Below, one piece after another: positions 275 through 48,519 of a stretch of DNA of 64,000 nt. The position numbers and the translations under genes are program-made. Origin of the DNA: Squalus acanthias (taxonomy: Eukaryota); contig CM059431.1 in NCBI GenBank assembly GCA_030390025.1, positions 126,110,001 to 126,174,000 on the forward strand. Reading direction: 5' to 3'. Position 1 is the stretch's first letter, and every line of letters begins with the position of its first letter. Under the pieces are notes generated by a model. That model was not told the origin of the DNA, did not search any database, and worked only from the letters and a program-made list of their open reading frames with translations.

Positions 275-366
275 GGGAAAGGTAGCATAGTGGTTATGTT
301 ACTGGACTAATAATCCAGAGGCCTGGCCTAATGATCAGGAGACATGAGATCAAATCCCACCACGGC
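275..366 (+). promoter_or_regulatory. tRNA-like head with Pol III A box (TAGCATAGTGG 283-293) and degenerate B box (GATCAAATC 348-356)
   Basis: Matches A-box/B-box consensus with an anticodon-like stem CTGGA..TCCAG between them; the same head opens copy 3 at 43626. Confidence 0.8.
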
Positions 367-3300
367 AGTAAGGAATTTAAATGCAGTTATTTAAATAAAT
401 CTGGAATAAAAAGCTGGCATCAGTGTTACTACCGCATTGTCGTAAAAACCCATCTGGTTCACTAATGTCCTTTAGGGAAAGAAATCTGCCGTCCTTACCC
501 GGTCCAGCCTATATGTGATGACAGACCCACAGCAATGTGGTTGACTCTTAACTGCCCTCTGAAATGGCCTATCAAGCCACTCAGTCGTAACAAACCGCGA
601 CAGAAAACAATAATAAGAATAAAACCGGATCAACTTCGGACACGACGAAGGCACACCCAGCCCAGTCGAGCCTGCAAAGTCCTCCTCACTAACATCTGGG
701 GACATGTGCCAAAATTGGGAGAGCTTCCCCACAGACTAGTCACACAACAGCCTGACATAGTCATGCTCACAGAATCATACCTTTCAGCCAGTGTCCCAGA
801 CTCCTCCATCACCATCCTTGGGTATTTCCTGTCTCACCAGCAGGAAAGACCCACCAGAGGTCATGGTATATAGGTAGGAGGGAGTGGCCCTGGGAGTCTC
901 ATGGCATCAGATCAAACATGGGCAAGATTACCATCTACCGCCCTCCCTCAGCTGATGAATCAGTACTCCTCCATGTTGAACACCACTTCGAAGTAGTACT
1001 GCGGGTACAGAATGTACTCTGTGTGGGGGACTTCAATGTCCATCACCAAGAGTGGCTCAGTAGCACCACTACTGACTGAGCTGGCCTAGTCCTGAAGGAT
1101 TAAGCTGCCAGACTGGACCTGCCACAGGTGGTGAGAGAACCAACACGAGGGAAAAACCGACTTGACCTCGTCCTCACCAATTTACCTGTCACAGATGCAT
1201 CTGTCCATGACAGTATTGGTAGGAGTGACCACCGCACAGTCCTTGCAGAGATGAAGTCCCTTCTTCACACAGAGGACACCCTCCATCATGTGTGGCTCTA
1301 CCAATGTGCTAAATGGGATAGATTCAGAACAGATCTAGCAGCTTAAAACTGGGCATCCATGAGGCGCTGTGGGCCATCAGCAGCAGCAGAATTGTATTCC
1401 ACTATAATCTCATGGCCTGGCATATCCCTCACTCTACCATCACCATCAAGCCAGGGGACCAACCCTGGTTCAACAACGAGTGTAGAAGAGCATGCCGGGA
1501 GCAGCACCAGGCGTACCTAAAAATGAGGTGCCAACCTGGGTAAGCTGCAACACAGGACTACATGCATGCTGAAAAACGGAAGCAGCATGCTATAGACAGG
1601 GCTAAGCAATCCCACAATCAACGGATCAGATTAAAGCTCTGCAGTCCTGCCACATCCAGTCGTGAATGGTGGTGGACCATTAAACAACTGACGGGAGGAG
1701 GAGACTCCAAGAATGTCCCCATCCTCAATGATGGTGGAGCCCAGAATGTGAGTGCAAAAGACAAGGCTGAAGCGTTTGCAACCAACATCAGCCAGAAGTG
1801 CCGAGTGGATGATCCATATCGGCCTACTCCCGAGGTCCCCACCATCACTGAAGCCAGTCTTCATTCCACGTGATATCAAGAAATGGCTGAACACACTGAA
1901 TACAGCAAAGGCTATGGGCCCCGACAACACCCTGGCTATCGTGCTGAAGACTTTTGCTCCAGAACTAGCCACGCCTCTAGCCAAGCTGTTCCAGTACAGC
2001 TACAACACAGGCATCTATCCGACAATGTGGAAAACTGCCCAGGTATGTCCTGTCCACAAAAAGCAGGACAAATCCAACCCGGCCAATTACCGCCCCATCA
2101 GTCTACTCTCAATCATCAGCAAAGTGATGGAAGGTGTCATCGACAGTGCTATCAAGCAGCACTTACTCACCAATAACCTGCCCACTGATGCCCAGTTTGG
2201 GTTCCACCAAGACTACTCGGTTCCTGACCTCATTACAGCCTTGGTCCAAACATGGACAAAGCTGAATTCCAGAGGTGTGGTGAGAGTGACTGCCCTTGAC
2301 ATCAAGGCAGTATTTGACCGAGTCTGGCATCAAGGGGCCCGAGTAAAACTGAAGTCAATGGGAATCAGGGGAAAACGCTACACTGTCTGGAGACATACCT
2401 AGCACAAAGGAAAATGGTTGTGGTGGTTGAAGGTCAATCATCACAGCCCCAGGACATCGCTGCAGGAGTTCCTCAGGGCATTGTCCTAGGCCCAAACAAC
2501 TTTAGCTGCTTCATCAATGACCTTCCCTCCAACATAAGGTCAGAAATGGGGATGTTCGCTGATGACTACACAGTGTTTAGCGCCATTCACAACTCCACAG
2601 ATAATGAAGCAGTCCATGCCCGCATGCAACAAGACCTGGACGACGTTCAGGCTTGGGCTGATAAGTGGCAGGTAACATTCGCGCCACAGAAGTGCCAGGC
2701 AATGACTATCTCCAACAAGCGAGAGTCTCACCACCTCCCCTTGACATTCAATGGCATTACCATCACCGAATCCCCCTCTATCAACATCCTGGGGGTCACC
2801 ATTAACCAGAAATTTAACTGGACCAGCCACATAAATACTGTGGCAACAAGAGCTGGTCAGAGGCTAGGTATTCTGCGGCGAGTGTCTCACCTCCTGACTC
2901 CCCAAAGCCTTTCCACCATCTACAAGGCACAAGTAAGGAGTGTGATGGAATACTCTCCACTTGCCTGGATGAGTGCAGCTCCAACAACACTCAAGAAGCT
3001 GACACCATCCAGGACAAAGCAGCCCGCTTGATTGGCACCCCATCCACCACCTTAAACATTCACTCCCTCCACCACCAGCGTACCGTGGCTGCAGTGTGTA
3101 CCATCTACAAGATGCACTACAGCAACTCACCAAGGCTTCTTCGGCAGCACCTCCCAAACCCACGACCTCTTCCACCTAGAAGGACAAGGGCAGCAGGCGC
3201 AAGGGAACACCACCACCTCCAAGTTCCCTTCCAAGTCACACACCATCCTGACTTAGTAGTATATCGCCGATCCTTCATCGTCACTGGGTCGAAATCCTGG

Positions 3301-3460
3301 AACTCCCTACCTAACAGCACTGTGGGAGTACCATCACCACACGGACTGCAGCGGTTCAAGAAGGCGGCTCACCACCACCTTCTCAAGGGCAACTAGGGAT
3401 GGTCAATAAATGCTGGCATGGCCAGCGACGCCCAGATCCCATAAACAAATTTAAAAAAAA
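275..3460 (+). mobile_element. Full-length single-ORF non-LTR retrotransposon (APE+RT, CR1/L2/Jockey superclade) with tRNA-derived 5' head, copy 1, decayed
   Basis: APE motifs (PDIVMLTESYL at 535-873, GDFN, SDH at 1128-1346); RT motifs (NYRPISLL, ALDIKAVFDRVWH, GVPQG, FADD) in 1752-3031; C-terminal KSWNSLP; 3' UTR with AATAAA and an A-rich tail ending ~3460. Several frameshifts and stops. Confidence 0.92.
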
Positions 3461-6400
3461 TGGGAGGAGGAGGCTCCATGAACATCCCCATTCTCAATGA
3501 TGGTGGAACCCAGCACGCGAGTGCAAAAGACAAGGCTGAAGCGTTTGCAACCATCTTCAGCCAGAAGTGCCGAGTGGATGATCCATCTCGGCCTACTCCT
3601 GAGGTCCCCACCATCACAGAAGCCAGTCTTCAGCCAATTCAATTCACTCCACATGATATCAGAAACGGCTGAGCGCACTGGATACAACAAAGGCTATGAG
3701 CCCTGACAATATCCCGTCTGTTATGCTGAAGACTTGCGCTCCAGAACTGCCCAGGTCTGTCCTGTCCTCAAAAAGCGGGACAAATCCAATACAGCCAATT
3801 ACCGCCCCATCAGTCTACTCTCAATCATCAGCAAAGTGATGAAAGGTGTTATCGACAATGCTGTCAAGCGGCATTTACTCACCAATAACCTGGTCACCGA
3901 TGCTCAGTTTGGGTTCCGCCTGGACCACTCGGCTCCAGACCTCATTACAGCCTTAGTTTAAACATGGACAAAGGAACTGAATTCCAGAGGTGAGGTGAGA
4001 GTGACTGCCCTTGACATCAAGGCAGCATTTGACCGAGTGTGGCATCAAGGAGCCAGAGTAAAACTGAAGTCAATGGGACTCGGGGGGGTGAAACTTTCCA
4101 CTGACTGGAGTCATACCGAGCACAAAGGGAGATGGTTGTGGTTGTTGGATGCCAATCATCACAGCCCCAGAATATCGCTGCAGGGGTTCCTCAGGGCAGT
4201 GTCCTAGGCCCAATCATCTTCTTGCTGCTTCATCAATGACCTTCCCTCCATCATAAGGTCAGAAGTGGGGATGTTCTTTAATGATTGCACAGTTTTCAGT
4301 TCCATTCGCTACTCCTCAGAAATGAAGCAGTCCATGCCAGCATGCAGCAAGACCTGGACAACATTCAGGCTTGGGCTGATAAGTGGCAAATAACTCTCAC
4401 GCCACACACGTGCCAGGCAATGACTATCTCCAACAAGAGAGCATCTAACCACCACCCCTTGACATTCAACAGTATTAACATCGCTGAATCCCCTGACATT
4501 AACATCCTGGGGGTCACCACTGTAAGGGGTTCGGTCGTAGGTGCTTGTGCGGGGTTAGGCCTTTGTTGCCTAATACTATTGCTTGCTCTGGTCTCCGGCC
4601 AGCCTTGTTGCAATAAGCACCTGTGAGTGGTTCGACCCACTCGCCCTTACGGTTCTAACACTGGACTTAGGTGCGAGAGCAGTAATGCAGAGAAAAACTC
4701 AAATAGACCCGGTTGAATAGTACGAAATGGAAATCTTTATTGCATAACGTCCAAAATCATGAAGTACATGTCATAGGCACAAATTAATGACAGTACAAGT
4801 ATACATACATTCATAAAACTTGGTCTAGGGTAATGAGGAACGCACGGCACATCATAAAAAGGGGAACACATTATATTTATCCTTAATAAAAACCACCCTC
4901 CCCTATCAATACCTACACTAATCTAGATTTGTAGGATCGTGAAACATGCTCACCACTCGTGATACTTCGGAGAATTTTAAACTAAGGCACTCGGCTCGTT
5001 TCGCTGCAGTTCTTTCTTGTATTTTCGGGTGCGGTCGGGGTTTACTGACCGTGGCGGTACGTGGATTCTTCTCCTCTTCTTCTCGTCTCGTCTCGTCTCG
5101 TCTCTTCGGGCCTTCGGGTCCAGACACCGTTTACCGACTCTCGGGATGGTGCACCCGGTCACTGGCCTTCGTCGAGGCGACTCGTTCCGTTCGAGCTCCA
5201 CCCAACATAGTCAACAGAGTCCAGAGAAAAACAGAAGGCTGCTCGTCCAGCAGAGCGATCCCCGAGGATCAGAATAGGAGAATAAAAGTTCAGCAGTCAT
5301 CAGCGAGATAAAACAGTCAAGAGACCGATGGACATTTGTTCTCTATAGTTATAGTGCTGTGTCCCCTTATCTCCCGCTCAAATCTTGATGTTTGTCCTTT
5401 GTGTAATACTGGTGCACAAAACTCCCAGCATGGGGCGATTCTTTCCTTTAATGGGTATTGGTAGCACCTGAAACTGGCCAACTATCCGTTAATGTTTTCC
5501 CCATTGTCGAACCGGCTAGGAGTCTCCCTGACTGGTTTTGGGGCCTCCTCGAATACTGATATGTGTATTGCTGTGTCTGGATGGGCCTTCGATTGCCCAG
5601 TACAATGGTCCTTACTTGTGCATGGAAAATGATTCCAGCACTTATATCTTTGCTATTGTCACAAATGCAAACAGGTTGCATCCTGTCTTTATCAATGTTT
5701 GCCGAGTATTATCCAATCTTATACTGAAATGTTTATTCGAACGCCATCTTGTCTGCCCACTGTATTCTGGAAGCTTCTGCCACGATGCTCGGCGGCCATT
5801 TTACAGGCTTCTGTGTCCTTTATATCATGACAGCATTTCGTTGAAATAAAACTGATGAAACGAATCTGCTTTATCTCGTTATTTCGAATCGCGATAATTG
5901 CGAATTTTACACCACTGACCAGAAACTTAACTGGACCAGCCACATAAATACTGTGGCGACAAGAACAGGTCAGAGGCTGGGTATCCTTTGGCGAGTGTGT
6001 CACCTCCTGACTCCCCAAAGCCTTTCCACCATCTACAAAGGCACAAGTCAGGAGTGTGATGGAATACTCTCCACTTGCCTGGATGAGTGCAGCTCCAACA
6101 GCACTCAAGAAGCTCGACACCATCCAGGACAAAGCAGTCCGCTTGACTGGCACCCCATCCACCACCTTAAACTTTCACTCCCTCCACCACCGGCGCACTG
6201 TAGCTGCAGTGTTTACCATCTACAAGATGCACTGCAGCAACTCGCCAAGGCTTCTTTGACAGCACTTCCCAAACCCACGATCTCTACCACTTAGAAGGAC
6301 AAGCGCAGCAGGCGCATGGGAACACCATCACCTCCAAGTTTTCTTCCAAGTCACACACCATCCTGACTTAGAAGTATTTCGCCGATCCTTCAACGTCGGT

Positions 6401-6575
6401 GGGTCAAAATCCTGGAACTCCCTCCCCAACAGCACTGTGGGAGTACCTTCACCACGCAGACTGCAGCATTTCAAGAAGGCGGCTCACCACCACCTTCTCA
6501 AGGGCAATTAGGGATGGGCAATAAATGCTGGCCTTGCCTGTGACGCCCACATCCCAGGAACGAAGAAAAAAAAAA
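3461..6575 (+). mobile_element. 5'-truncated copy 2 of the same LINE, directly after the tail of copy 1, interrupted by a solo LTR at 4521-5911
   Basis: Collinear with 1693-3450; RT fragments in ORFs 3460-4626 and 5953-6294; same 3' UTR and A tail at ~6565-6575. Confidence 0.92.
4521..5911 (-). mobile_element. Solo LTR, 1391 bp, of an LTR retrotransposon or endogenous retrovirus
   Basis: TGTAA...TTACA termini; 4-bp TSD CCAC (4517-4520, 5912-5915); removal restores the host LINE. Minus orientation is inferred only from a TATA-like motif near 5350 and AATAAA near 4740. Confidence 0.8.
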
Positions 6576-13467: not shown

Positions 13468-15200
13468 ACATAGAAACATAGAAGATAGGAGCAGGAGCAG
13501 GCCATTCGGCCCCTCGAGCCTGCTCCACCATTCAATGATATCATGGATGATCATCCAAATTCAGTACCCTGACCCTGCTTTCTCCCCATATCCCTTGATC
13601 CCTTTAGCCTTAAGAAATATATCTAACTCCTTCTTGAATATATTTAATGAATTGGCCTCAACTGCCTTCTGTGGTAGAGAATTCCACAGGTTCACCACTC
13701 TCTGGGTGAAGAAATTCCTCCTCATCTCAGTCCTAAATGGCTTACCCCTTATCCTTAGACTGTGACCCCTGGTTCTGGACTCCCCCGCCATCGGGAACAT
13801 CCTTCCTGCATCTAGTCTGTCTAGTCCTGTTAGAATTTTATAAGTTTCAATGAGATCCCCTCTCATTCTTCTAAACTCTAGCGAATACAAGCCCAATCGT
13901 CCCAATCTCTCTTCATACGTCATTCCTGCCATCCCAGGTATCAGTCTGGTGAATCTTCGCTGCACCCCTTCCATGGCAAGAACATCCTTCCTGAGATAAG
14001 GTGAACAAAACTGCACACAATACTCAAGGTGTGGTCGCACCAAGGCCCTGTACAACTGCAGCAAGACATCCTTGTTCCTGTACTCGAATCCTCTCGCTAT
14101 GAAGGCCAACATACCATTTGCCTTCTTAACCGCCTGCTGCACCTGCATGCTTACCTTCAGTGACTGGTGCACAAGGACACCCAGGTCTCGTTGCACTTCC
14201 CCTTTTCCCAATCTATTGCCGTTCAGATAATAATCTGCCTTCCTGCTTTTGCCACCAAAGTGGATAACCTCGCATTTATTCACATTATACTGCATCTGCC
14301 ATGCATCTGCCCAATCACCCAACTTGTCCAAATCATACTGGAGTTTCTCTGCATCTTCCTTACAACACACACGCCCACCCAGCTTTGTGTTGTCTGCAAA
14401 CTTGGAGATATTACATCTAGTTCCCTTGCCTAGATCATTAATATATATTGTGAATAACTGGGGTCCTAGCACCGATCCCTGCGGTACCCCACTAGTCACT
14501 GCCTGCCACTCGGAAAAAGACCTGTTTATTCCAACTCTTTGCTTCCTGTCTGCCAACCAGTTCTCTATCCAAGTCAGTACCTTAAACCCAATCCCATGTG
14601 CTTTAACTTTGCATGCCAATCTCTTATGCGGGACCTTATCGAAAGCCTTCTTAAAGTCCAAATACACCACATCCACTGGTTCTCCCTTATCTATTCTACA
14701 AGTTACATCCTCAAAAATTCCAGTAGATTAGTCAAGCATGATTTACCTTTTGTAAATCCATTTTGACTTTGTCCGATCCTGTCACTGTTTTCCAAGTGCT
14801 CTGCTATTACATCTTTTATAATGGACTCTAGCATTTTCCCCACTACCGATGTCAGGCTTACCGATCAATAATTCCCCATTTTCTCTCTACCACCTTTTTT
14901 AAATAGTGGGGTTACATTAGCTACCCTCCAATCCATGGGAATTGTTCCAGAGTCTATAGAATTTGGGAAGATGACCAGCAATGCATCTACTATTTCTAGG
15001 GCCACTTCCTTAAGTACCCTAGGATGTAGATTATCAGGCCCTGGGGATTTATCGGCCTTCAACCCCGTCAATTTCCCCAACACCATTTCCCTACAAATAC
15101 TGATTTCATTCAGTTCCTCCCTCTCATTAGACCCTATGTTCCCCGACATCTCTGGGAGGTTATTTGTGTCCTCCTTTGTGAAGACAGAACCAAAGTATGT
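13465..15200 (-). mobile_element. CR1 LINE A, 3' part (RT domain, 3' UTR, octamer tail)
   Basis: ORF 13561-14676 with [27 protein letters not shown]; (TTCTATGT)n tail at 13465-13483. Confidence 0.95.
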
Positions 15201-18200
15201 CAAGGATGTCTCAGAGCGGCTGCAGAACATTCTGGAAAGGGAGGGTGAAGAGCCAGCTGTCGTGGTGCATGTAGGTACCAACGATATAGGTAAAAAGCAG
15301 GAAGAGGTCCTACAAGCAGAATTTAGGGAGCTAGGAGCTAAATTGAAAAGTAGGACCTCAAAGGTAGTAATCTCTGGGTTGCTAACAGTGCCACGTGCTA
15401 ATCAGAGTAGCATGAACAGGATAGCGAGATTAAATACGTGGCTTGAGCAGTGGTGCAGGAGGGACGGATTCAAATACCTGAGGCATTGGAACCAGTTCTG
15501 GGGGAAGTGGGACCTGTACAAAAGGGACGGTCTGTACTTGGGCAGGACTGGAACCGATGTCCTCGGGGTAATATTTGCTAAGGCAGTTCGGGAGGATTTA
15601 AACTAATATGGCAGGGGAATGGGAACCTATGTAGCGAAACAGGGGGAAGTAATATGCAGTCAGAAACAAATGTTAGAAGGGTGAGAAACAATAAGGGAAA
15701 TCCGAGTAAACAAAGGCAAGAAACACAAAGGGCCATACTAAATCATAAGTCTAAAAGGACAAAGGGTGTTAATAAAACAAGCCTAAAGGCTCTGTGTCTT
15801 AATGCAAGGAGTATCCGTAATAAGGTGGATGAATTGACTGTGCAAATTGATGTTAATGGATATGATGTGATTGGGATTACAGAGACGTGGCTCCAGAACA
15901 ATCAAGGCTGGGAACTGAATATCCAGGGGTATTCAACATTCAGGAAGGATAGAATAAAAGGAAAAGGTGGTGGGGTAGCATTGCTGGTTAAAAAGGAGAT
16001 TAATGCAGTAGCTAGGAAGGACATGAGCTTGGAGGATGTGGAATCAATATGGGTTGAGCTGCAGAACACCAAAGGGCAGAAAACATTAGTGGGGGTTGTG
16101 TACAGACCTCCAAACAGTAGTAGTGAGGTGGGGGAGGGTATGAAACAGGAAATCAGAGGTGCATGCAAAAAGGGCGCAGCAGTTATCATGGGTGACTTTG
16201 ATATGCATATAGATTGGGCTACTCAAACTGGAAGCAATACGGTGGAGGAGGATTTCCTGGAGTGTTCAAGGGATGGTTTCCTAAACCAATATGTTGAGGA
16301 ACCAACTAGAGGGGAGGCCATCCTGGACTGGGTGTTGTGTAATGAGGAAGGACTAATCAGCAATCTTGTGGTGCGAGGCCCCTTGGGGAAGAGTGACCAT
16401 AGTATGGTGGAGTTCTACATTAGGATGGAGAAGGAAACAGTTAATTCAGAGACCATGGTCCAGAACTTAAATAAGGGCAACTTTGAGGGTATGCGGCGTG
16501 AATTGGCGAGGTTAGATTGGCAAGCGATATTTAAGGGGTTATCAGTGGAAGGGCAATGGCGGACATTTAGAGATCGCATGGATGAACTACAGCAATTGGA
16601 CATCCCTGTCTGGCGTAAAAATAAAAAAGGGAAGGTGGCTCAACCATGGCTAACAAGGGAAATCAGGGATAGTATTAAAAGCAAGGAAGTGGCATACAAA
16701 TTGGCCAGAAGTAGCAGCAAACCCAGGGACTGGGAGAACTTTAAAACTCAGCAGAGGAGGACGAAGGGTTTGATTAGGGCAGGGAAAATAAAATATGAAA
16801 GGAAGCTTGCAGAGAACATTAAAACGGACTGCAAAAGCTTCTATAAATATGTAAAAAGAAAGAGGTTAGTAAAAACAAACATAGGTTCCCTGCAGTCAGA
16901 AACAGGGGAAGTCATAATGGGGAACAAAGAAATGGCAGATCAATTGAACAAGTACTTTGGTTCGGTGTTTACTGTGGAGGACACAAACAACCTTCCGGAA
17001 ATAAAAGAGATTAAAGGATCTGGTAAGAGGGAGGAGCTGAGGGAAATCCTGATCAGTCGGGAAAAGGTATTGGGGAAATTGATGGGACTGAAGGCTGATA
17101 AATCCCCAGGGCCTGATGGTCTGCATCCCAGAGTACTTAAGGAGGTGGCCTTGGAAATAGTGGATGCATTGACGATCATTTTCCAACATTCCTTAGACTC
17201 TGGATCAGTTCCGAAGGAGTGGAGGGTGGCTAATGTTACCCCTCTTTTTAAAAAAGGAGGGAGGGAGAAAGCAGGGAATTATAGACCGGTCAGCCTGACA
17301 TCGGTGGTAGGTAAAATGATGGAATCAATTATTAAAGATGTCATAACAGACCATTTGGAAAGTGGCGACATGATAGATTCAAGTCAGCATGGATTTGTGA
17401 AAGGGAAATCATGCTTGACAAATCTTCTGGAATTTTTTGAGGATGTTTCTAATAGGGTGGACGGGGAGGAACCAGTAGATGTGGTGTATTTGGACTTTCA
17501 GAAGGCCTTCGACAAGGTCCCACACAAGAGATTGGTGTGCAAAGTTAAAGCACATGGGATTGGGGGTAATGTGTTGACGTGGATTGAGAACTGGTTGGCA
17601 CACAGGAAACAAAGAGTAGGAGTAAATGGGTACTTTTCAGAATGGCAGGCAGTGACCAGCGGGGTACCGCAGGGTTCGGTGCTGGGGCCCCAGCTGTTTA
17701 CATTATATATTAATGATTTGGACGAAGGGATTAATTGTAATATCTCCAAATTTGCGGATGACACTAAATTGGGAGGCAGTGTGAACAATGAGGAGGATGC
17801 TAGGAGGCTACAGAGTGACTTGGACAGGTTGGGTGAATGGGCAAATGTATGGCAGATGAAGTACAATGTGGATAAATGTGAGGTTATCCACTTTGGTGGT
17901 AAAAATAGGGAGGCAGACTATTACCTGAATGGTGGCAGATTAGGGAAAGGGGAGGTGCAACGAGACCTGGGCGTCATGGTACATCAGTCACTGAAGGTGG
18001 GAAGGCAAGTGCAGCAGGCAGTCAAGAAAGCAAATGGCATGATGGCCTTCATAGCAAGGGGATTTGAGTACAGGAGTAGGGAGGTGATGCTACAGTTGTA
18101 CAGGGCCTTGGTGAGGCCACACCTGGAGTATTGTGTGCAGTTTTGGTCTCCTAACTTGAGGAAGGACATTCTTGCTATTGAGGGAGTGCAACGAAGGTTC

Positions 18201-18691
18201 ACTAGATTGATTCCTGGGATGGCCAGACTGACATATCAAGAAAGACTGGATCAACTGAACTTGTATCCTCTGGAGTTCAGAAGAATGAGGGGGGATCTTA
18301 TAGAGACGTTTAAAATCCTGACTGGTTTAGACAAATTAGATGCGGGCAGAATGTTTCCAATGTTAGGGAAAACTAAAACCAGGGGTCACAGTCTAAGGAT
18401 AAAGGGGAAGCCATTTAAGACTGAGATGAGGAGGAACTTCTTCACCCAGAGAGTGGTGAATCTGTGGAATTCTCTACCACAGAAGGATGTTGAGGCCAGT
18501 TCGCTAAATATATTCAAAAGGGAGTTAGATATAATACTCACAACGAGGGGGATCAAGGGGTATGGTGAGAAAGCAGGAATGGGGTACTGAGGTAGCATGT
18601 TCAGCCATGAATGCATTAAATGGCAGTGCAGGCTCGAAGGACCGAATGGTCTACTCCTGCACCTATTTTCTATGTTTCTATGTTTCTATGT
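15201..18691 (+). mobile_element. CR1 LINE B, 5'-truncated within ORF1, inserted antisense into CR1 A
   Basis: 9-bp TSD AAAGTATGT (15192-15200, 18692-18700); ORF1 esterase remnant 15201-15606; (TTCTATGT)n tail. Confidence 0.96.
15654..18590 (+). CDS. CR1 ORF2 protein, AP-endonuclease + reverse transcriptase, 978 aa, uninterrupted
   Basis: [72 protein letters not shown]. Confidence 0.95.
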   Translation: MQSETNVRRVRNNKGNPSKQRQETQRAILNHKSKRTKGVNKTSLKALCLNARSIRNKVDELTVQIDVNGYDVIGITETWLQNNQGWELNIQGYSTFRKDRIKGKGGGVALLVKKEINAVARKDMSLEDVESIWVELQNTKGQKTLVGVVYRPPNSSSEVGEGMKQEIRGACKKGAAVIMGDFDMHIDWATQTGSNTVEEDFLECSRDGFLNQYVEEPTRGEAILDWVLCNEEGLISNLVVRGPLGKSDHSMVEFYIRMEKETVNSETMVQNLNKGNFEGMRRELARLDWQAIFKGLSVEGQWRTFRDRMDELQQLDIPVWRKNKKGKVAQPWLTREIRDSIKSKEVAYKLARSSSKPRDWENFKTQQRRTKGLIRAGKIKYERKLAENIKTDCKSFYKYVKRKRLVKTNIGSLQSETGEVIMGNKEMADQLNKYFGSVFTVEDTNNLPEIKEIKGSGKREELREILISREKVLGKLMGLKADKSPGPDGLHPRVLKEVALEIVDALTIIFQHSLDSGSVPKEWRVANVTPLFKKGGREKAGNYRPVSLTSVVGKMMESIIKDVITDHLESGDMIDSSQHGFVKGKSCLTNLLEFFEDVSNRVDGEEPVDVVYLDFQKAFDKVPHKRLVCKVKAHGIGGNVLTWIENWLAHRKQRVGVNGYFSEWQAVTSGVPQGSVLGPQLFTLYINDLDEGINCNISKFADDTKLGGSVNNEEDARRLQSDLDRLGEWANVWQMKYNVDKCEVIHFGGKNREADYYLNGGRLGKGEVQRDLGVMVHQSLKVGRQVQQAVKKANGMMAFIARGFEYRSREVMLQLYRALVRPHLEYCVQFWSPNLRKDILAIEGVQRRFTRLIPGMARLTYQERLDQLNLYPLEFRRMRGDLIETFKILTGLDKLDAGRMFPMLGKTKTRGHSLRIKGKPFKTEMRRNFFTQRVVNLWNSLPQKDVEASSLNIFKRELDIILTTRGIKGYGEKAGMGY

Positions 18692-21433
18692 AAAGTATGT
18701 ATTTAATTGGTCTGCCATTTCTTTGTTCCCCATTATAAATTCCCCTGATTCTGACTGCAAGGGACCTACACTTGACTTCACCAATCTTTTTCTCTTCACA
18801 TATCTGTAGAAGCTTTTATAGTCAGTTTTAATGTTCCATGCAACCTTACTCTCATACTCTACTTCCCCCCTCTTATTTAACCCCTTTGTCCTCCTTTGCT
18901 GAATCCTAAACTGCTCCCAATCCTCAGGTTTGCTGCTTTTTCTGGCCAATTTATATGTCCTCTCCTTGGATCTTATGCTATCCCTAATTTCCCTTGTTAG
19001 CCACAGTTGAGTCACCTTTTTTGTTTTATTTTTATGCCAAACAGGGATGAAAAAATTCTGTAGTTCATCTATGCGATCTTTAAATGCTTGCCATTGCCTA
19101 TCAACCGTCAACTCTTTAAGTAACGTTCCCCAATCCATCCTTGCCAATTCGCGCCTCATACCATCGTAGTTTCCTTTATTTAAATTCAGGACCCTAGTCT
19201 CTGAGTCAACTACTTCACTCTCCATCTTAATGAAGAATTCCATCATATTATGATCGCTCCTCCCCAAGGGGCCTCGCACAACAAGATTGCTAATTAATCC
19301 TTTCTCATTATATAATTCCCAGTCTAAGATGGCCTGATCTCCAGTTGGTTCCTCGACATATTGGTTCAGGAAACCATCCCGTATACACTCTAGGAATTCC
19401 TCCTCCACAGTATTGTTACTAATTTGGTTAGCCCAATCTATATGTAGATTAAAGTCACCCATGATAACTGCTGTGCCCTTATTGCACGCATCTCTAATTT
19501 CCCGTTTAATGCCATCCCCAACCTCAGCATTACTGTTTGGGGGTCTGTATACAACTCCCACTAACATTTTCTGCACCTTGGTATTTCTCAGCTCTACCCA
19601 TACAGATTGCACATCATCAGAGCTAATATCCTTCCTTACTATTGTGTTAATCTCCTCTTTAACCAGCAATGCTACCCCACCTCCTTTTCCTTTTTGCCTG
19701 TCCCTCCTGAATATTGAATACCCCTGGATGTTGAATTCCCAGCCTTAGTCACCTTGGAGCCACATCTGCGTAATCCCAATTATATCATATCCATTTACAT
19801 CTATTTGCGCAGCCAATTCATCCACCTTATTATGAATGCTCCTCGCATTAAGACACAAAGACTTCGGGCTTGTTTTTTTAAAAAACACTTTTTGACCTTT
19901 GTTATTTACTGTGGCCATGTTTGATTTACACCTTTGATTTCTCTGACTGCCATTTTTGCTTTTCTCCTTCCTGTCTTTTGCTTCTATCCTTGCTTCCCTT
20001 TCCTCTGTCTCCCTGCACAGGGTCGCAACCCCCTGCCATTTTAGTTTAAACCCTCCCCAACAGCATTAGCAAACACTCTCCCTGGGACATCAGTCCCGGT
20101 CCTGCCCAGGTGCAAACCGTCCAGTTTGTACTGGTCCCACCTCCCCCAGAACCGGTTCCAATGTCCCAGGAATTTGAATCCCTCCCCCTTGCACCATTCC
20201 TCTAGCCATGTATTCATCTGAAATATCCTCCTATTTCTACTCTGACTAGCACGTGACACCGGTAGCAGTCCTGAGATTACTACCTTTGAGGTCCTATTTT
20301 TTAATTTACCTCCCAACTCCCTATATTCAGCTTTTAGGACCTCATCCCGGTTTTTACCTATATCGTTGGTACCTATATGCACCACGACAACTGGCTGTTT
20401 ACCCTCCCTCTCCAGAATGCCCTGCAGTCGCTCCGAGACATCCTTGACCCTTGCACCAGGGAGGCAACATACCATCCTGGAGTCTCGTTTGTGGCTGCAG
20501 AAACGCCTATCTATTCCCCTTACAATAGAATCCCCTATTACTATAGCTCTCCTGCTCTTTTTCCTCCCGTCCTGTGCAGCAGAACCACCCATGGTGCCAG
20601 GAAGTTGGCTGCTGCTGCCTTCCCCCGATAAGCCATCTCCCTCAACAATATCCAAAGTGGTATATCTGTTTGAGAGGGGGATGGCCACAGGGGACCCCTA
20701 AACTACCTGCCTGCGCCTACTACTCTTCCTGGCGGTCACCCATTCCCTTCCTGCCTGTGCAGCCTTTACCTGCGGTGTGACCAACTGATTAAACGTGCTT
20801 TCCACGACGTCCTCAGCATCGCGAATGCTCCAGTATGTATCCATTCGCAGCTCCAGCGCCACAATGCGGTCTGCCAGTAGCTGCAGCTGGATACACTTCC
20901 CACACACATGGTCGTCAGGGACACAGGAAGTGTCCCTGATTTCCCACATAGTGGAGGAGGAGCATAGCACGGGGCCAAGCTGTGCTGCCATGACTTACAC
21001 TTTAATTAATTTAAATTAAATTAAATCAAAGCCACTAATTGCACTACAATTAAATGATATACTCAAGGGCCCTTGTTTACTAGTACTCCCCGCTACACAA
21101 CAGAGACCTTAGAAACTATAACCACAAAAATTAGGACCTTCTAAACTTTATAAACTATTAACCTTAACTGTCAAACTATAGAGTAGTATAAATACTCACC
21201 TGGCCATACTCCCCCAATCAGCTGCTTCCTCTTGCCCGTATCACTTTTTGAATCGTGGCGTGGCTCTGGAACGCCGCCGCCGGTTTGCGAGATTGACCAG
21301 CCTTTGAAAAAAAGCCCGCGAAAGTAAGTTTAAATACTCAGGGTGAAAAGTTAGGAAAAACAAAGGGGACGCAAGGGAGCTCCTCCTTCCACTCCTCACC
21401 CAACTAGCAGCACTCTGTTGAAAGCACACTCAG
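18692..21433 (-). mobile_element. CR1 LINE A, 5' part (5' UTR, ORF1, APE half of ORF2)
   Basis: APE ORF 18686-19669 (VYRPP, GDFN, SDH); joins 15200 exactly once CR1 B is removed. Confidence 0.95.
20041..20991 (-). pseudogene. CR1 A ORF1: zinc-finger/leucine zipper plus SGNH esterase-like domain
   Basis: Degenerate Cys motif with CGKC, heptad leucines, IGDSIVRG, CLPGA, HIGTND, DGLHL; one in-frame stop near 20698. Confidence 0.9.
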
Positions 21434-33853: not shown

Positions 33854-36800
33854 AGATCGGAACAGAGTGTTAAGCTGTGAGTTTGGTGAGTGAGTGAGTG
33901 AGTGAGGGGAGGGAGGTAGGTGTTCCTTTCTTTTTCCATCTTTGTCAGCTTCCAGGAGAGCAGGAGCTAAAAAGCTGCACAAGAGGGGACAGAGAACCAG
34001 CGGTGAGTATTTCTACAGTATTTCTACATTCCAGTCATTAAAGTAAAAGTAAGGTCTCCAGTTTAGAGTAAGTAGTGTTTAAAGGGAAGTAAGGTCCCTA
34101 GTGTATTTAGTATTCTTTAAGTTAAAGGGTGTAAATTAAGGGTAGGACATGGCAGGGCAGCTCAGCAGTGTGGAGTGCTCCTCCTGCGCTATGTTGGAAG
34201 TCAGGGACACTTCAGGTGTCAAGGGCAAACACATGTGCAGGAAGTGTCTCCAGCTGCAGCTACTCGAAATCCGCTTTTCGGAGCTGGAGCTGCGGCTGGA
34301 GTCACTTTGGAGCATCCGCAAAGCTGAGATCTTCATGGATAGCACGTTTAACAAGGTGGTCACACCGCAGATAAAGAGTGCACAGGCAGACAGGGAATGG
34401 GTGACCACCAGACAGAGTAAAAGAACTAGAAAGGTAGTGCAGAAGTCCCCTGGGTCCATCTCCCTCTCCGCCAGATTTGGATACTGATGGGGGAGATGGT
34501 TTCTCAGGGGAATGCAGCAAGAGCCAAGTCCGTGGCACTACGAGTGGCTCAGCTGCACAGGAGGGGAGGAAAAAGAGTGGGAGAGCAATAATGATAGGGG
34601 ATTCTATCGTAAGGGGAACAGATAGACGTTTCTGTGGCCGCAGACGTGACTCCAGGATGGTATGTTGCCTCCCTGGTGCCAGGGTCAAGGATGTCACTGA
34701 ACGGCTGCAGGGCATTCTGAAGGGGGAGGGCAAACAGTCAGAGGTCGTGGTTCACATTGGTACCAACGACATGGGTAGAAAGAGGGATGAGGTCCTGCAA
34801 CAAGAATTTAGGGAGCTAGGTAGCAGATTAAAAAGCAGGACCTCAAAGGTTGTAATCTCTGGATTACTCCCGGTGCCACGTGCTAGTGAGTATAGGAATA
34901 GGAGGATAGAGCAGATGAATCTGTGGCTAAAGAGTTGGTGCAGGAGGGAGGGCTTTAGTTTCCTGCATCACTGGGTCTGCTTCTGGGGAAGGTGGGACCT
35001 GTACAAGTCGGACGGGTTGCACCTGAACCGGAACGGGACCAACATCCTTGCGGGGAGGTTTGCTAGTGCTGTTGCGGGGGGGTAAACTAACTTAGCAGGG
35101 GGATGGGATATGGAGTGGAGCTAAAGTAGGGGGTGATGCACAGCCAAATATAGAGGAAAAAACAAGTCAGCCTGGAAGGCAGAGCAAATATGTAACGGCA
35201 CAAGGGAGTATGGCAAGACTGGATGGCATTTATTTTAATGCAAGGAGTCTTGCGAGTAAGGCAGATGAATTGAAGGTGTTGATGAACACATGGGAGTATG
35301 ATATTGTTGCTATCACGGAGACATGGTTGAGGGAGGGGCAGGACTGGCAGCTCAATATTCCGGGGTATAAAATCTTCAGGCGAGACAGAGGGGGGTGTAA
35401 AAGAGGAGGGGGTTTCGCAATATTAATCAAGGAGTCAATTACTGTTGTAAGGAGGGATGATATCTTAGCAGTTTCCTCTAATGAGGCCCTATGGGTAGAA
35501 CTTAAAAACAAAAAGGGGGCAAGCACTTTGCTGGGAGTGTATTATAGGCCCCCAAACAGTCAGGGGGAGATAGAGGAACAGATATGCAGGCAAATCTCAG
35601 AGAAGTGTAGAAATAATAGGGTAATAATAGTAGCGGATTTCAACTTCCCCAATATTAACTGGGATAGTCAGAGTGTGAAAGGCTTAGAGGGTGCGGAATT
35701 CTTAAAGTGCATCCAGGAGAGCTTTTTGAGCCAGCATGTAGAAAGTCCTACAAGAGAGGGGCCGTACTGGACCTAATTCTAGGGAATGTAGCCGGGCAAG
35801 TGGTAGAAGTGTTAGTAGGAGAGCATTTTGGTGACAGTGACCATAATTCGGTGAGATTTAAGGTAGTCATGGAAAAGGACAAAGATGGACCGGAAATAAA
35901 GGTTCTAAATTGGGGGAAGGCCGATTTTAATATGATAAGGCAGGATCTGGCCAAAGTGGACTGGGATCAGCTACTTGCAGGAAAATCCACATCAGAGCAG
36001 TGGGAGTCTTTCAGAAAGGAAATAAAGATAGTACAACGGCAACATGTTCCCGTAAAGGTCAAGGGTGGGACCAACAAGCCCAGGGAACCCTGGATGTCAA
36101 GGGATATACTAGAATGGATTAGGATAAAAAGGGAGGCTTTTGGCAGATACAAAGGACTAAAAACAGTGGAAGCCCGAGAGGAGTATAGAAAGTGCAGGGG
36201 GGTACTTAAAAAAGAAATTAGGAGAGCGAAGAGGGGGCATGAAATAACACTGGCGGGCAAAATAAAGGAAAATCCCAAGGTGTTTTAGAAGTATATTAAG
36301 GGCAAGAGGATAACCAGGGAAAGAGTAGGGCCCATTCGGCACCAAAGTGGCAATCTGTGTGCAGAGCCAGAAGATGCAGGTGGGGTTTTAAATGAATATT
36401 TTGCATCTGTGTTCACGATGGAGAAGGATGATGTAGGCATAGAAATCAGGCAGGGGGATTGTGATATACTTGAACAAATTAGTATTGAGGGAGAGGAGGT
36501 ACTAGTGGCTTTAGCGGGCTTAAAAGTGGATAAAACCCCAGGCCCAGATGAGATGTATCCCAGGCTGCTGTGTGAGGCAAGGGAGGAGATTGCACGGGCT
36601 CTGACACAAATTTTCAGAACCTCTCTGGCCACAGGGGAGGTGCCAGAGGACTGGAACAGCTAAAATGGTACCATTATTCAAGAAGGGTAGTAGGGATAAA
36701 TCAGGGAATTACAGGCCAGTGAGCATAACGTCAGTGGTAGGGAAATTATTGGAAAAAATTCTGAGGGACAGAATTAGTCTCCACTTGGAGAGGCAAGGAT

Positions 36801-38112
36801 TAATCAAGGATAGTCAGCATGGCTTTGTCAGGGGGAGATCATGTCTGACCAATTTGATTGAATTTTTCGAGGGAGTGACTAGGCGTGTGGATGAGGGTAG
36901 TGCAGTTGATGTGGTCTACATGGACTTCAGTAAGGCTTTTGACAAAGTCCCGCATGGGAGACTGGTCAAGAAGGTAAGAGCCCATGGGATCCAGAGCAAC
37001 TTGGCACATTGGATCCAAAATTGGCTTAGTGGCAGGAGGCAGAGGGTGATGGTCGAAGGTTGTTTTTGTGACTGGAAGCCTGTGTCTAGTGGTGTACCGC
37101 AGGGATCGGTGCTGGGTCCTTTGCTGTTTGTAGTGTACATTAATGATTTAGATATGAATGTAGGAAGTATGATCAGTAAGTTCGCAGATGACACGAAAAT
37201 TGGTGGAGTGGTAAATAGCGAGGAGGGAAGCCTCAGGCTTGCAGGACGATATAGATGGGTTGGTTAGATGGGCAGAACAGTGGCAAATGGAATTTAACCC
37301 TGAAAAGTGTGAGGTGATGCATTTTGGGAGGACTAACAAGGCAAGGGAATACACAATGAATGGTAGGACCCTAGGAAGGACAGAGGATCAGAGGGACCTT
37401 GGTGTGCATGTACATAGATCCCTGAAAGCAGCAGGACAGTTAGATAAGGTGGTTAAGAAGGCATATGGGTTACTTGCCTTCATTAGCCGAGGCATAGAAT
37501 ATAAGAGCAGGGAGGCTATGATGGAGCTGTACAAAATGCTAGTTAGGCCACAGCTGGAATACTGTGTGCAGTTCTGGTCGCCACACTATAGGAAGGATGT
37601 GATTGCATTGGAGAGGGTGCAGAGGAGATTCACCAGGATGTTACCTGGGCTGCAGCGCTTCAGCTATGAAGAGAGACTGGACAGGCTGGTGTTGTTTTCC
37701 TTAGAGCAGAGAAGGCTGAGGGGAGACTTGATTGAGGTGTACAAAATTATGAGGGGCATAGATAGGGTAGATAGAAAGGAACTTTTCCCCTTAGTAGAGG
37801 GGTCAATAACCAGGGGGCATAGTTTCAAGGTAAGGGGCAGGAGGTTTAGAGGGGATTTGAGGAAAAATCTTTTTCACCCAGAGGGTGGTTGGAATCTGGA
37901 ACTCACTGCCTGAAAGGGTGGTAGAGGCAGGAACCCTCACAACATTCAAGAAGCATTTAGATGAGCACTTGAAACGCCATAGCATACAAGGCTACGGACC
38001 AAGTGCTGGAAAATAAGATTAGAATAGACAGGGCTTGATGGCTGGCGCGGACACGATGGGCCGAAGAGCCTCTTTCTGTGCTGTATAACTCTATGGCTCT
38101 ATCTATGACTCT
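33854..38112 (+). mobile_element. Full-length CR1 LINE C, decayed
   Basis: 5-bp TSD AATGC (33849-33853, 38113-38117); ORF1 34149-35085 (CSSC..CRKC, GDS/GTND/DGLH); ORF2 fragments 35210-37913 with FADD; CTATGACT-type tail. Confidence 0.95.
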
Positions 38113-43625: not shown

Positions 43626-46600
43626 GGGAACGGTAGCATAGTAATTATGTTACTGGACTAGTAATCCAGAGGCCTGGACTAATGATCCAGAGACGTGAGT
43701 TCAAATACCACCATGGCAGCTGGGGAATTTAAATGTAGTTAATTAAATAAATCTGGAATAAAAAGCTACTATCAGTAATGGTAACCATGAAACTATCGGA
43801 TTGTCGTAAAAACCCATCTGGTTCACTGATGTCCTTTAGGTCTGGCCTATATGTGACCCATAGCAATGTGGTTGACTCTTAACTGCCCTCTGAAATGGCC
43901 GAGCAAGCCACTCAGTTGTAAAAAAACGCTATGAAAAACATTAAGAAAAAAAACAAACGGACCACCGGCATCGACTTCAGTACCAGCTACTGACACGATA
44001 ACGGCACACCCAGCCCTAACATCTGGGGACTTGTGCCAAAATTGGGAGAGCTGTCCCACAGACTAGTCAAGCAACAGCCTGACATAATGATACTCACAGA
44101 ATCATACCTTTCAGCCAATGTCCCAAACTCCTCCATCACCATTCCTAGCTATGTCCTGTCCTACCAGGGGAGGCAGCTCAGTGATATACAGTTGGGAGGG
44201 AGTGGCCCTGGGAGTCCTCAACATTGACTCCAGAGTCCATGAAGGTCAAGCAGGGGCAAGAAAACCTCATGCTGATAACCATCTACTGCCCCCCATCAGC
44301 TGATCAATCAGTACTCCTCCATGTTGAACACCACTTGGAAGAAGCTGTTGCAAGGGCACAGAATGTACTCTGGGTGGGGGACTTCAATGTCCATCACCAA
44401 GAGTGGCTCGGTAGCACCACTACTGACCATGCTGACCTGAAGGATATAGCTGCCAGTCTGGACCTGCGACAAATGATGAGAGAACCAACACGAGGGAAAA
44501 ACCTACTTGACATCAGCCTCACCAATCTACCTGTCACAGATGTATCTGTCTATGACAGCACTGGTAGCAGTGACCGCCGCACAGTCCTTGTGGAGACGAA
44601 GTCCCGTCTTCACACTCAGGGTACCCACCATCGTGTTGTGTGTCACTACCACCGTGCTAAATGGGATAGATTCAGAACAGATCTAGCAGTTCAAAACTGG
44701 GCATCCATGAGGCGCTGTGGGCCATCAGCAGCAGCAGAATTGTATTCCACCACAATCTGTAACCTTATGGCATGGCATATCCCTCACTCTACCATTACCA
44801 TCAAGCCAGGGGACCAATCCATCAAGCCAGAAGCAGCACCAGGAGTATCTAAAAATGAGGTGCCAACCTGGGGAAGCTGCAACACAGGACTACATGCATG
44901 CTAAAAAGCGGAAGCAGCATGCTATAGACAGAGCTAAGCGATCCCACAATCAAGGGATCAGATCAAAGCTCTGCAATCCTGGCACATCCAGTGGACCATT
45001 AAACAACTCACGGGAGGAGGAGGCTCCATGAATATCCCCATCCTCAATGATGGTGCAGCCCAGCACGTGAGTGCAAAAGACAAGGCTGAAGCATTTGCAA
45101 CCATCTTCAACCAGAAGTGCCGAGTGGATGATTCATATCGGCATTCTCCTGAGGTTCCCACCACCACAGAAGCCAGTCTTCAGCCAATTCGATTCACTTC
45201 ACGTGATATCAAGAAACGGCTGAGCGCACTGAATACAGCAAAGGCTATGGGCCCCGACAACATCCCGGCTATCGTGCTGAAGACTTGTGCTCCAGAACTA
45301 GTCGTGCCTCTAGCCAAGCTGCTCCAGTACAGCTACAACACTGGCATCTACCCGACAATGTGGAAAACTGCCCAGGCATGTCCTGTCCACAAAAAGCAGG
45401 ACAAATCCAATCCAGCCAATTATTGCCCCATCAGACTACTCTCAATCATCAGCAAAGTGATGGAAGGTGTCATCAACAGTGCTATCAAGAGGCACTTACT
45501 CACCAATAACCTGCTCACTGATGCCCAGTTTGGGTTCCGCCAAGACCACTTGGCTCAAGACCTTGTTACAGCCTTGGTCCAAACATGGGCAAAAGAGCTG
45601 AATTCCAGAGGTGAGGTGAGAGTGACTGCCCTTGACATCAAGGCAGCTTTTGACCGAGTGTGGGATCAAGGAGCCCTAGTAAAACTGAAGTCAATGGGAA
45701 TCGGGGGGGAAACTCTCCACTGGCTGGAGTCATACCTAGCACAAAGGAAGATGGTTGTGGTGGTTGGAGGTCAATCATCACAGCCCCAGGACATCGCTGC
45801 AGGAGTTCCTCAGGGTAGTGTCCTAGGCCCAACTATCTTCAGCTGCTTCATCAATTACCTTCCCTGCATCATAAGGTCAGAAGTGGAGATGTTCGCTGAT
45901 GACTGCACAGTGTTCAGTGCCATTTGCAACTCCTCAGATAATGAAGCAGTCCATGCCTGCATGCAGCAAGACCTGGATGACATTCAGGCTTGGGCTGATA
46001 AGTGGCAAGTAACATTCACGCCATACAAGTGCCAGGCAATGACTATCTCCAAAAGCACGCATCTAACCATTCAACACCATTACAAGAGCAGGTCAGAGTC
46101 TGGGTAATCTGCGGCAAATGTCTCACCTCCTGACTCCCCAAAGCCTTTCCACCATCTACAAGGCACAAGTAAGGAATGTGATGGAATTGTCTCCACTTGC
46201 AGGATGAGTGCAGCTCCAAAAACACTCAAGAAACTTGACACCATCCAAGCCAAAGCAGCCCACTTGATTGGCACTCCATCCACCACCTTAAACATCCACT
46301 CCCTCCACCATCGGCGTACCGTGGCTGCAGAGTGTACCATCTACAAGATGCACTGCAGCATTTCGAAAGGCTTCTTTGGCAGCACCTTCCAAACCTGCAA
46401 CCTCTACCACCTAGAAAGACAAGGGCAGCAGGAGCATGGAAACACCACCACCTACAAGTTCCCCTCCAAGTCAGACACCATCCTGACTTGGAAATATATC
46501 GCAGTTCCTTCATCGTCGCTGGGTCAAAATCCTGGAACTCCCTCCCTAACAGCTCTGTGGGAGTACCTTCACCGCAAGGACTGCAGCGGTTCAAGAAGGC

Positions 46601-46692
46601 AGCTCACCACCACCTTCTCAAGGGCTACTAGGGATGGAAAATAAATGCTGGCCTTGCCAGCGACGCCCACATCCCATGAATGAATAAAAATA
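43626..46692 (+). mobile_element. Copy 3 of the tRNA-headed single-ORF LINE, near full length, decayed
   Basis: Head GGGAACGGTAGCATAG, B box GTTCAAATA 43699-43707; APE ORFs 44033-44904 (VGDFNVHH), RT ORF 45028-46107 (FADD); same 3' UTR and tail. Confidence 0.93.
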
Positions 46693-46777
46693 AATTGTGC
46701 TTCCCTGGGTCAGGCGGTTGCAAATCAGCAGTCTAAAGTCAAGTCCTGGGCCCCCATTACAATCAATGGAGATACTA

Positions 46778-48462: not shown

Positions 48463-48519
48463 CTCTTTTTAGAAAAGATTGGCATTGAGCATTTTAGGTT
48501 TAGAGATGTATCCAAAAGT

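Follow-up and report, generated by a model that had tools for sequence, protein, structure and literature searches.

A tRNA-derived, SINE-like head as the 5' end of an abundant single-ORF LINE in Squalus acanthias

Introduction

Can a retroelement that encodes its own enzymes begin with the tRNA-derived head of a non-coding one, and if so, which polymerase would transcribe it? Long interspersed nuclear elements (LINEs) are normally transcribed by RNA polymerase II (Pol II), and tRNA-derived heads define the non-autonomous short interspersed nuclear elements (SINEs). The question is raised by a 64,000-nucleotide (nt) stretch of the Squalus acanthias genome (GCA_030390025.1, contig CM059431.1, positions 126,110,001 to 126,174,000 of the forward strand), which was analyzed as a whole and is called the window hereafter. 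At its positions 275 to 3460, a tRNA-like head with the A and B boxes of an RNA polymerase III (Pol III) promoter, followed by a SINE-type body, precedes an open reading frame (ORF) for an endonuclease and a reverse transcriptase (RT). The original prediction, made from the letters of this sequence, had proposed a LINE that captured a Pol III promoter, or the autonomous parent of a SINE family. Sister copies were taken from the 3.7-Gb genome to which the window belongs, and coordinates are those of the first copy (copy 1) unless stated otherwise. We report here that the composite has moved as one unit, and we examine its short relatives, its coding part and its possible mode of transcription.

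Results

The head as part of the element

The window contains two full-length copies on the forward strand. Copy 1 (275..3460) consists of a head, a SINE-type body, a linker, an endonuclease, an RT, a C-terminal part and a structured tail. Copy 2 (43626..46694) shows the same head-body-ORF-tail order with deletions of its own, and both can be aligned end to end, at 83% identity for 275-2733 and 89% for 2846-3459. The 40 bases located 5' of the two copies are unrelated, and similarity begins exactly at GGGAA(A/C)GGTAGCATAG. Comparison of the flanks thus confirmed the common start claimed for both 5'-complete copies, and the unrelated upstream DNA ruled out that copy 2 is a segmental duplicate of copy 1. 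The SINE-like body, of about 240 bp, leads straight into the endonuclease without an ORF1, as had been noticed.

Genome sampling relied on three queries, for each of which the best 40 of about 3400 candidates were scored and 29 other loci were fetched. The numbers of first-look candidates, 488,416 for the RT against about 3400 for the 5' region, are not copy numbers. The junction query (540-800), which contains body sequence, gave 3543 first-look candidates; all 40 that were scored spanned the junction, with 85-100% identity, and 26 of the 29 other loci extended to 275-287. The unbiased query (700-1000) covers the endonuclease region alone, with neither head nor body. Eighteen of its 29 other copies extended to the first bases of the head, 2 of them across nested insertions, and this supports that the head belongs to the element. 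The other 11 stopped at about 375, 396, 464, 507, 595, 595, 612, 628, 645, 660 and 681. Their upstream DNA was mutually unrelated, apart from short linker stretches, and neither an alternative 5' untranslated region (UTR) nor an ORF1 was found among the 29 copies. Judged by their sequence, the 11 headless copies are ordinary 5' truncations, and the sampled copies did not give the picture of missing or variable heads that would speak against the original prediction.

Of 87 fetched loci, 72 carried the start of a head, which opened with GGGAAC-like bases and was preceded by unrelated DNA (55 in LINE-form, 16 in a short SINE-form described below, and 1 fragment). Exactly GGGAAC was present in 23 of 47 copies of LINE-form and in 6 of 15 of SINE-form, and AGGAAC-type variants occurred in both. 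No pair of loci was at least 97% identical over 400 nt, which indicates independent insertions. The composite, from head to tail, has moved by retrotransposition as a single unit and now occupies many unrelated sites; we hold this with high confidence. The family is a real and very abundant single-ORF LINE family (endonuclease and RT, about 3.2 kb), and its dispersed copies with a common 3' end and variable 5' truncation are those of a LINE.

The truncations were unevenly placed. Seven of the 11 (L038, L041, L044, L054, L055, L056 and L059) end at about 595-681, just 3' of the part shared with the SINE-form, and only 4 fall in the preceding 300 nt. This cluster could mean that the RT stalls on the structured head and body, or that transcription has a second start. 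Also, three copies (L038, L039, L047) lie within 250 kb of contig C6, at about 96.60-96.84 Mb; they are not near-identical, and their 5' ends are at about 628, 507 and 275. Outside the genome, public runs of at least 6 different organisms contain 26-60% of the 31-letter words of copy 1, which suggests either that close relatives possess orthologous loci or that sequence of young subfamilies is shared.

A degenerate tRNA head

The head of copy 1 (275..369, forward strand) includes an A box, duplicated anticodon-like hairpins and a B box. By reading of the sequence, the A box TAGCATAGTGG was located at 283-293 and a B-box-like motif GATCAAATC at 348-356, so that the two boxes and the anticodon-like arm described earlier are all present. 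The box patterns are consensus motifs. Of 53 LINE-form copies, 36 had an exact A box at element nt 9 and 41 an exact B box at about nt 74; of 16 SINE-form copies, 11 had the former and 15 the latter. The Rfam tRNA model reached 20 bits on copy 1 (276-329) and 26-27 bits on three sister copies; these scores are under the cut-off of 29, as expected for a derived head. ARAGORN called no tRNA within the window; among 41 sister loci, it recognized the head as a tRNA in two (Thr-AGT and Ile-AAT, 92-93 nt). On the strength of these motifs and scores, the head is tRNA-derived and degenerate.

In its tRNA-related head, with A and B boxes spaced as in a tRNA, the unit resembles SINE2 elements. Such elements are also short and non-coding, whereas the unit at 275-3460 measures 3.2 kb and encodes an apurinic/apyrimidinic-type endonuclease (APE) and an RT. 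Only its internally deleted form, of about 480 bp, is short and non-coding.

The short form and the shared 3' tail

Among the 29 loci of the head query (275-420), there were 16 SINE-form copies, 12 LINE-form copies and 1 fragment. Short SINEs carrying both ends of the LINE, which the original prediction had suggested looking for, are thus present. The SINE-form (about 480 bp) joins 275 to about 605/612 directly to about 3313-3460, and therefore corresponds to the first 330 nt or so of the LINE followed by its last 148 nt or so; some copies have further small deletions. The sampled SINE-form copies contained no sequence private to the SINE relative to the LINE, and no column in 275-605 separated the two forms by a frequency difference of at least 0.5. 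The last body bases in the SINE version (…CAAAGAAGTATA…) recur in the LINE-form copies L046, L049 and L051. Contigs of four public runs likewise join about 557-595 to about 3346-3369, the junction from 565 to 3363 being present in 5, 13, 2 and 4 contigs, and in one public run 669 loose ends at position 281 led into dissimilar flanks. Being made of the 5' and 3' parts of a LINE, the SINE-form is bipartite in the sense of Kojima (2018), with the difference that the LINE here bears the head as well.

The 3' region common to both forms (3313..3460, forward strand) comprises the last 27 or so codons, a stem-loop and an A-rich end, and the tails of SINEs match it from a start at about 3313-3385 through to 3460. 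The two-tier stem-loop at about 3398-3445 includes AATAAA. Nineteen LINE- and SINE-form tails were predicted to fold into one two-tier hairpin of 19 pairs, and no covariation or compensatory change was found in the stem-loop among these 19 tails. A conserved 3' stem-loop shared with a partner SINE is thus present, as in L2 elements. No target-site duplication was detected, since 11 insertions (9 SINE-form, 2 LINE-form) had no shared flank word of at least 7 nt and mismatched pairs of flanks scored no lower. CR1/L2-type elements usually have short target-site duplications or none.

The perfect collinearity of the two forms makes internal deletion of a headed LINE the simplest reading. Capture of a SINE front by a LINE is less simple, because the join must then fall exactly at the boundary between SINE body and tail. 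Descent of the SINE from the headed LINE by deletion has, in our estimate, an even chance. The idea of an autonomous parent of a SINE family fits the anatomy, with its exact collinearity, but the greater divergence of the sampled SINE copies argues against this direction of descent. The tree of 73 head and body rows did not decide this direction, as none of its 70 inner branches was strongly supported and neither form was a clade. SINE and LINE labels were clustered on this tree (7 changes against 14.5 in shuffles).

Concerning the inheritance of head and ORF, divergence was alike in the head and body (0.097) and in the ORF (0.098). A head variant was common to 8 LINE-form copies, which grouped in the tree with a Shimodaira-Hasegawa-like approximate likelihood-ratio (SH-aLRT) support of 90. 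Four of these 8 copies were included in the ORF alignment, where their mutual distance was 0.070 against 0.092, and none of 5000 random groups was as close. The equal divergence and the eight-copy group are consistent with inheritance of the head and ORF as a unit.

The single ORF and its translation start

The ORF of copy 1 (688..3396, forward strand) is decayed, with several frame breaks and stops according to three-frame translation and Pfam. The endonuclease runs from LTNIWG (688) to about 1400 and the RT from about 2055 to 2803, and the stop codon TAG is at 3394-3396. The endonuclease motif LLTNIWG occupies 682-702, and LTNIWGL aligns with the N-I/V-R-G-L of relatives. Pfam Exo_endo_phos_2 was recognized in copy 2 (E 1.8e-11), and RVT_1 in copy 2 (E 7.9e-32) and copy 1 (E 8.9e-17). 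In the 5'-truncated sister copy L091, a frame of 815 codons is still open and ends at the stop found in copy 1. We retrieved 585 related proteins, with 45% identity for the best. Distant relatives are single ORFs of about 935-960 amino acids, so that the absence of ORF1 is ordinary for the group, and their methionine lies 3-30 residues before the N-I/V-R-G-L motif. The N-terminal piece 466-873 gave no match to longer proteins in this collection, whose closest relative is at 45%.

Upstream of the ORF, the SINE-type body (370..605, forward strand) corresponds to that of the SINE-form in every alignment column. It holds the ATG at 535, and the family form also has a TAA at about 590. This body is presumably Deu-like, a label based on its architecture. 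The linker (606..687, forward strand) is specific to the LINE, rich in CpG and in Arg codons, variable in length and open in the endonuclease frame; that of copy 1 has a deletion by comparison with the sequences of 49 copies. In the family form, the TAA at about 590 closes the endonuclease frame upstream. The frame opens just after this codon and runs through 39-43 Arg/Lys-rich codons to the N of LTNIWG.

The original prediction had noted that in copy 1 the ATG at 535 is in frame with the APE start. This is correct, the frame being open until a stop at 871, but it is not a family trait. In copy 2 the ATG and the endonuclease are in different frames, and over 56 copies, with spacings of 135-183 nt between the two, the endonuclease was in frame in 16, at +1 in 14 and at +2 in 26, so that the in-frame share is that of chance. 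Both of the most frequent spacings, 182 nt in 7 copies and 170 nt in 6, are +2. The linker offered no in-frame ATG at the family level either, as only 8 of 49 copies have any, at scattered places. The endonuclease frame thus lacks a family-level AUG from which translation of the ORF would start.

Linker length classes measured from the ATG were 182, 179, 176, 170, 167 and 164 nt, and differ by deletions between short direct repeats (…CGGCATCGACCTCGGCACCGGC…). The 12-nt gap between the 182 and 170 forms was considered as a coding constraint and rejected, as it lies between such repeats. A -1 frameshift from the ATG at 535 into the endonuclease frame would fit the modal geometry (+2 being equivalent to -1), but no canonical slippery heptamer was seen by eye, and we do not claim it. 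The MWLTN start of one distant relative resembles MWLTLN in the body; with 1 occurrence in 120 proteins, it was taken as chance.

Sequence features bearing on the polymerase

LINE-form and SINE-form share their first nucleotide, with the A box at nt 9. This corresponds to the spacing of type-2 Pol III promoters, which start about 8-10 nt before the A box. Over the 3186 positions of the element, no run of 4 or more T was kept in at least 10% of copies on the sense strand. Runs of 4 or more of one base that were kept in at least half of the copies numbered 16 for A, 10 for C, 8 for G and 0 for T. For comparison, other LINE families are represented in the window by six fragments, which are located at 13594-15344 (-), 15675-18557 (+), 18482-19990 (-), 35138-37971 (+), 47059-48495 (-) and 49464-50423 (-), were recognized by tblastn to RT proteins (25-43% identity) and contain 39 T-runs in 11.4 kb. 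The sense strands of these fragments are C-poor (13-17% C) and G-rich, whereas the headed LINE family is C-rich (28%). Their T-runs are at or above the expectation for independent, identically distributed bases.

Depletion of TTTT had been considered as a signature of Pol III. After composition-aware shuffles, with an overall expectation of 1.3-2 T-runs and P of 0.14-0.62, it was downgraded to a compatible feature. Read together, the A and B boxes, the 5' end common with the SINE and the absence of a conserved TTTT are compatible with Pol III. We consider Pol III initiation at the head possible, at somewhat less than even chance. Of the public runs, which are in contig form, two bear an RNA label that is a guess.

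Other features of the window and of sister loci

A third copy in the window is split in two pieces, both on the forward strand. The first (3462..4519) lies directly against the A-tail of copy 1; truncated at its 5' end, it begins at a point equivalent to about 1693. The second (5910..6575), the equivalent of 2797-3460, lies about 1.39 kb away, and the intervening 4520-5909 is unrelated DNA. In the flank of one SINE copy (L066:2171-2264), a long palindromic hairpin gave matches to several models of microRNAs and plastid UTRs, on both strands and always under the cut-off. The best match was mir-3127 (53 bits against a cut-off of 82), and the hairpin is probably an inverted repeat of another element.

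Discussion

The full-length unit begins with the first nucleotide of a tRNA-derived head, whose A and B boxes are intact, and continues through a SINE-type body, a linker and the ORF to a structured 3' tail. We propose that the LINE and the SINE are the autonomous and the internally deleted forms of one element. Both forms would use the same 3' stem-loop for reverse transcription, and the RNA template of the LINE would start where that of the SINE does. Most simply, the internal A/B-box promoter of the head would set initiation, Pol III proceeding through 3.2 kb devoid of a conserved TTTT terminator. Taken as a whole (composite LINE, collinear SINE, Pol III start), this best explanation seems to us about evenly balanced between right and wrong. 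Carried further, it would make the Pol III product both genome and messenger, with cap-independent translation that begins at a non-AUG codon or in some other unconventional way, with a Deu-type SINE body that is the 5' end of a LINE and SINEs that are internally deleted LINEs. We regard this extended version as doubtful.

Several points weigh against our proposal. Pol III products are uncapped, normally short and poor messengers, and a LINE must be translated. Codon shuffles of the 815-codon sister ORF expect 1.74 TTTT where 0 were observed (P 0.14), and dinucleotide shuffles expect about 2 per copy where 1 was observed (P 0.37-0.62). Concerning unit inheritance, a Mantel test of head against ORF gave r 0.13, reached by 344 of 2000 permutations, and no head-ORF column pair had r2 above 0.4, which is less than in shuffles. 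The ORF closeness of the variant-head group is explicable by a younger age, and no diagnostic ORF column was found for this group. The sample consisted of top-scoring copies, and more diverged subfamilies may have another 5' end. As to descent, pairwise divergence in the head and body was higher in SINE-form (0.152, 16 copies) than in LINE-form (0.107, 57 copies), although the SINE sample was chosen for its likeness to the LINE head. Also, the SINE architecture has been reported from sharks, chimaera and coelacanth, with only the tail resembling L2-2_CM (PMC5499810). The higher divergence and wide reported distribution of the SINE argue that it is older than the LINE burst.

The most serious alternative is a composite LINE of the same build, the head and body of which act as the 5' UTR of a transcript made from an internal Pol II promoter at or near nt 1, the A and B boxes being a relic or serving the SINE only. 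It is in accordance with the need for a translatable messenger, normally capped and polyadenylated, with the AATAAA retained in the tail and with the CpG-rich linker before the ORF, similar to many LINE promoters. Composition also explains the TTTT deficit under this alternative, and the 7 of 11 truncations at about 595-681 could hint at a second start downstream, but these ends are scattered over about 90 nt and show no sharp start site. Moreover, the first nucleotides of LINE-form and SINE-form are identical (GGGAAC in the 23 of 47 and 6 of 15 copies mentioned above), and a Pol II start precisely at the tRNA-type promoter distance from the A box at nt 9 would be a coincidence. We consider a Pol II start rather unlikely.

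The composite could also be rebuilt at many insertions, if the RT, on arriving at the 5' end of a headless LINE mRNA, switched onto a SINE RNA within the short sequence common to both; head and ORF would then not be inherited together. Template switching is an accepted route to chimeric retrocopies and new SINEs (PMC5499810, PMC5786205), and such a process would account for the lack of any column separating the two forms in 275-605, for the lack of detected linkage between head and ORF variants, and for the enrichment of truncated copies at about 595-681. The head is nevertheless present in 18 of 29 copies, far above known rates of such switching, and past 595 the SINE and the LINE have no more than about 10-17 nt in common, which is little to guide a seamless join. 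No common 5' end or promoter was seen in the headless copies, and 8 LINE-form copies that group at SH-aLRT 90 carry one head variant. This route appears improbable. There is still less room for two separate elements, either a LINE that inserts site-specifically into SINEs or a chance nested insertion spread by segmental duplication. Such an origin would explain why head and body are indistinguishable from those of the SINE, but the flanks of all copies are unrelated, no pair reaches 97% identity over 400 nt, and in copy 2 no second SINE tail follows the LINE tail. The 5'-truncated copies (11 of 29, L091 and copy 3) are preceded by unrelated DNA and not by the 5' part of a SINE. We regard this origin as extremely improbable.

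The headed LINE resembles several known systems in part. L2-2_CM, eel UnaL2 and zebrafish ZfL2-2 are single-ORF LINEs of the L2/CR1 kind, and elements of this type likewise encode endonuclease and RT in an ORF of about 935 amino acids, without ORF1. They also have a 3' stem-loop and a short end that is A-rich or made of repeats, are heavily truncated at the 5' side and show few or no target-site duplications. They have, however, ordinary 5' untranslated regions, none being described with a head derived from a small RNA. Our use of the L2 label follows the architecture and the link of this SINE type to L2-2_CM (PMC5499810), and should be taken as provisional. In its architecture, the SINE-form matches DeuSINEs of the SacSINE1/LmeSINE1 type, in which a tRNA head carrying the A and B boxes is followed by a long, conserved body and an L2-LINE tail (PMC5499810, PMC4824008). 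In those reports, the partner LINE L2-2_CM is alike only in the tail, whereas here the LINE also has the head and body of the SINE.

Bov-tA with BovB and the SINEs derived from RTE and Vingi elements are bipartite too, with a body from the 5' part and a tail from the 3' part of a LINE, as in the SINE-form here. In those cases, however, only the short derivative has the tRNA head, the LINE having none (PMC5786205). The Repbase screen of Kojima (2018) found LINE 5' parts in SINE bodies only from RTE and Vingi, and the paper states that no LINE sequence resembling conserved SINE bodies had been found (PMC5786205). R2, which is co-transcribed by Pol I and carries a 5' ribozyme, and other LINEs that borrow the transcript of another polymerase are likewise autonomous LINEs without a Pol II promoter of their own (PMC5786205). 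R2 relies on the promoter of its target gene and cuts itself free, whereas the putative promoter here is internal and moves with the element. Chimeric retrocopies of the U6-L1 type also place a small Pol III RNA 5' of LINE sequence (PMC5499810). They are one-off, 5'-variable and dead, whereas one junction occurs here in dozens of independent insertions. In the literature, we found no description of a LINE with a tRNA or SINE head, although the element may be listed in Repbase or Dfam.

With a SINE head as the own 5' end of a LINE, in copies that number dozens at least and probably thousands, the line between LINEs and SINEs is blurred. For annotation, this implies that repeat libraries may split the unit into a "SINE" and a "LINE", or mislabel it. 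The headed LINE of S. acanthias provides a testable case for how SINE heads and LINE parts unite, for the origin of a conserved SINE body, and for the possibility that Pol III drives a protein-coding retroelement.

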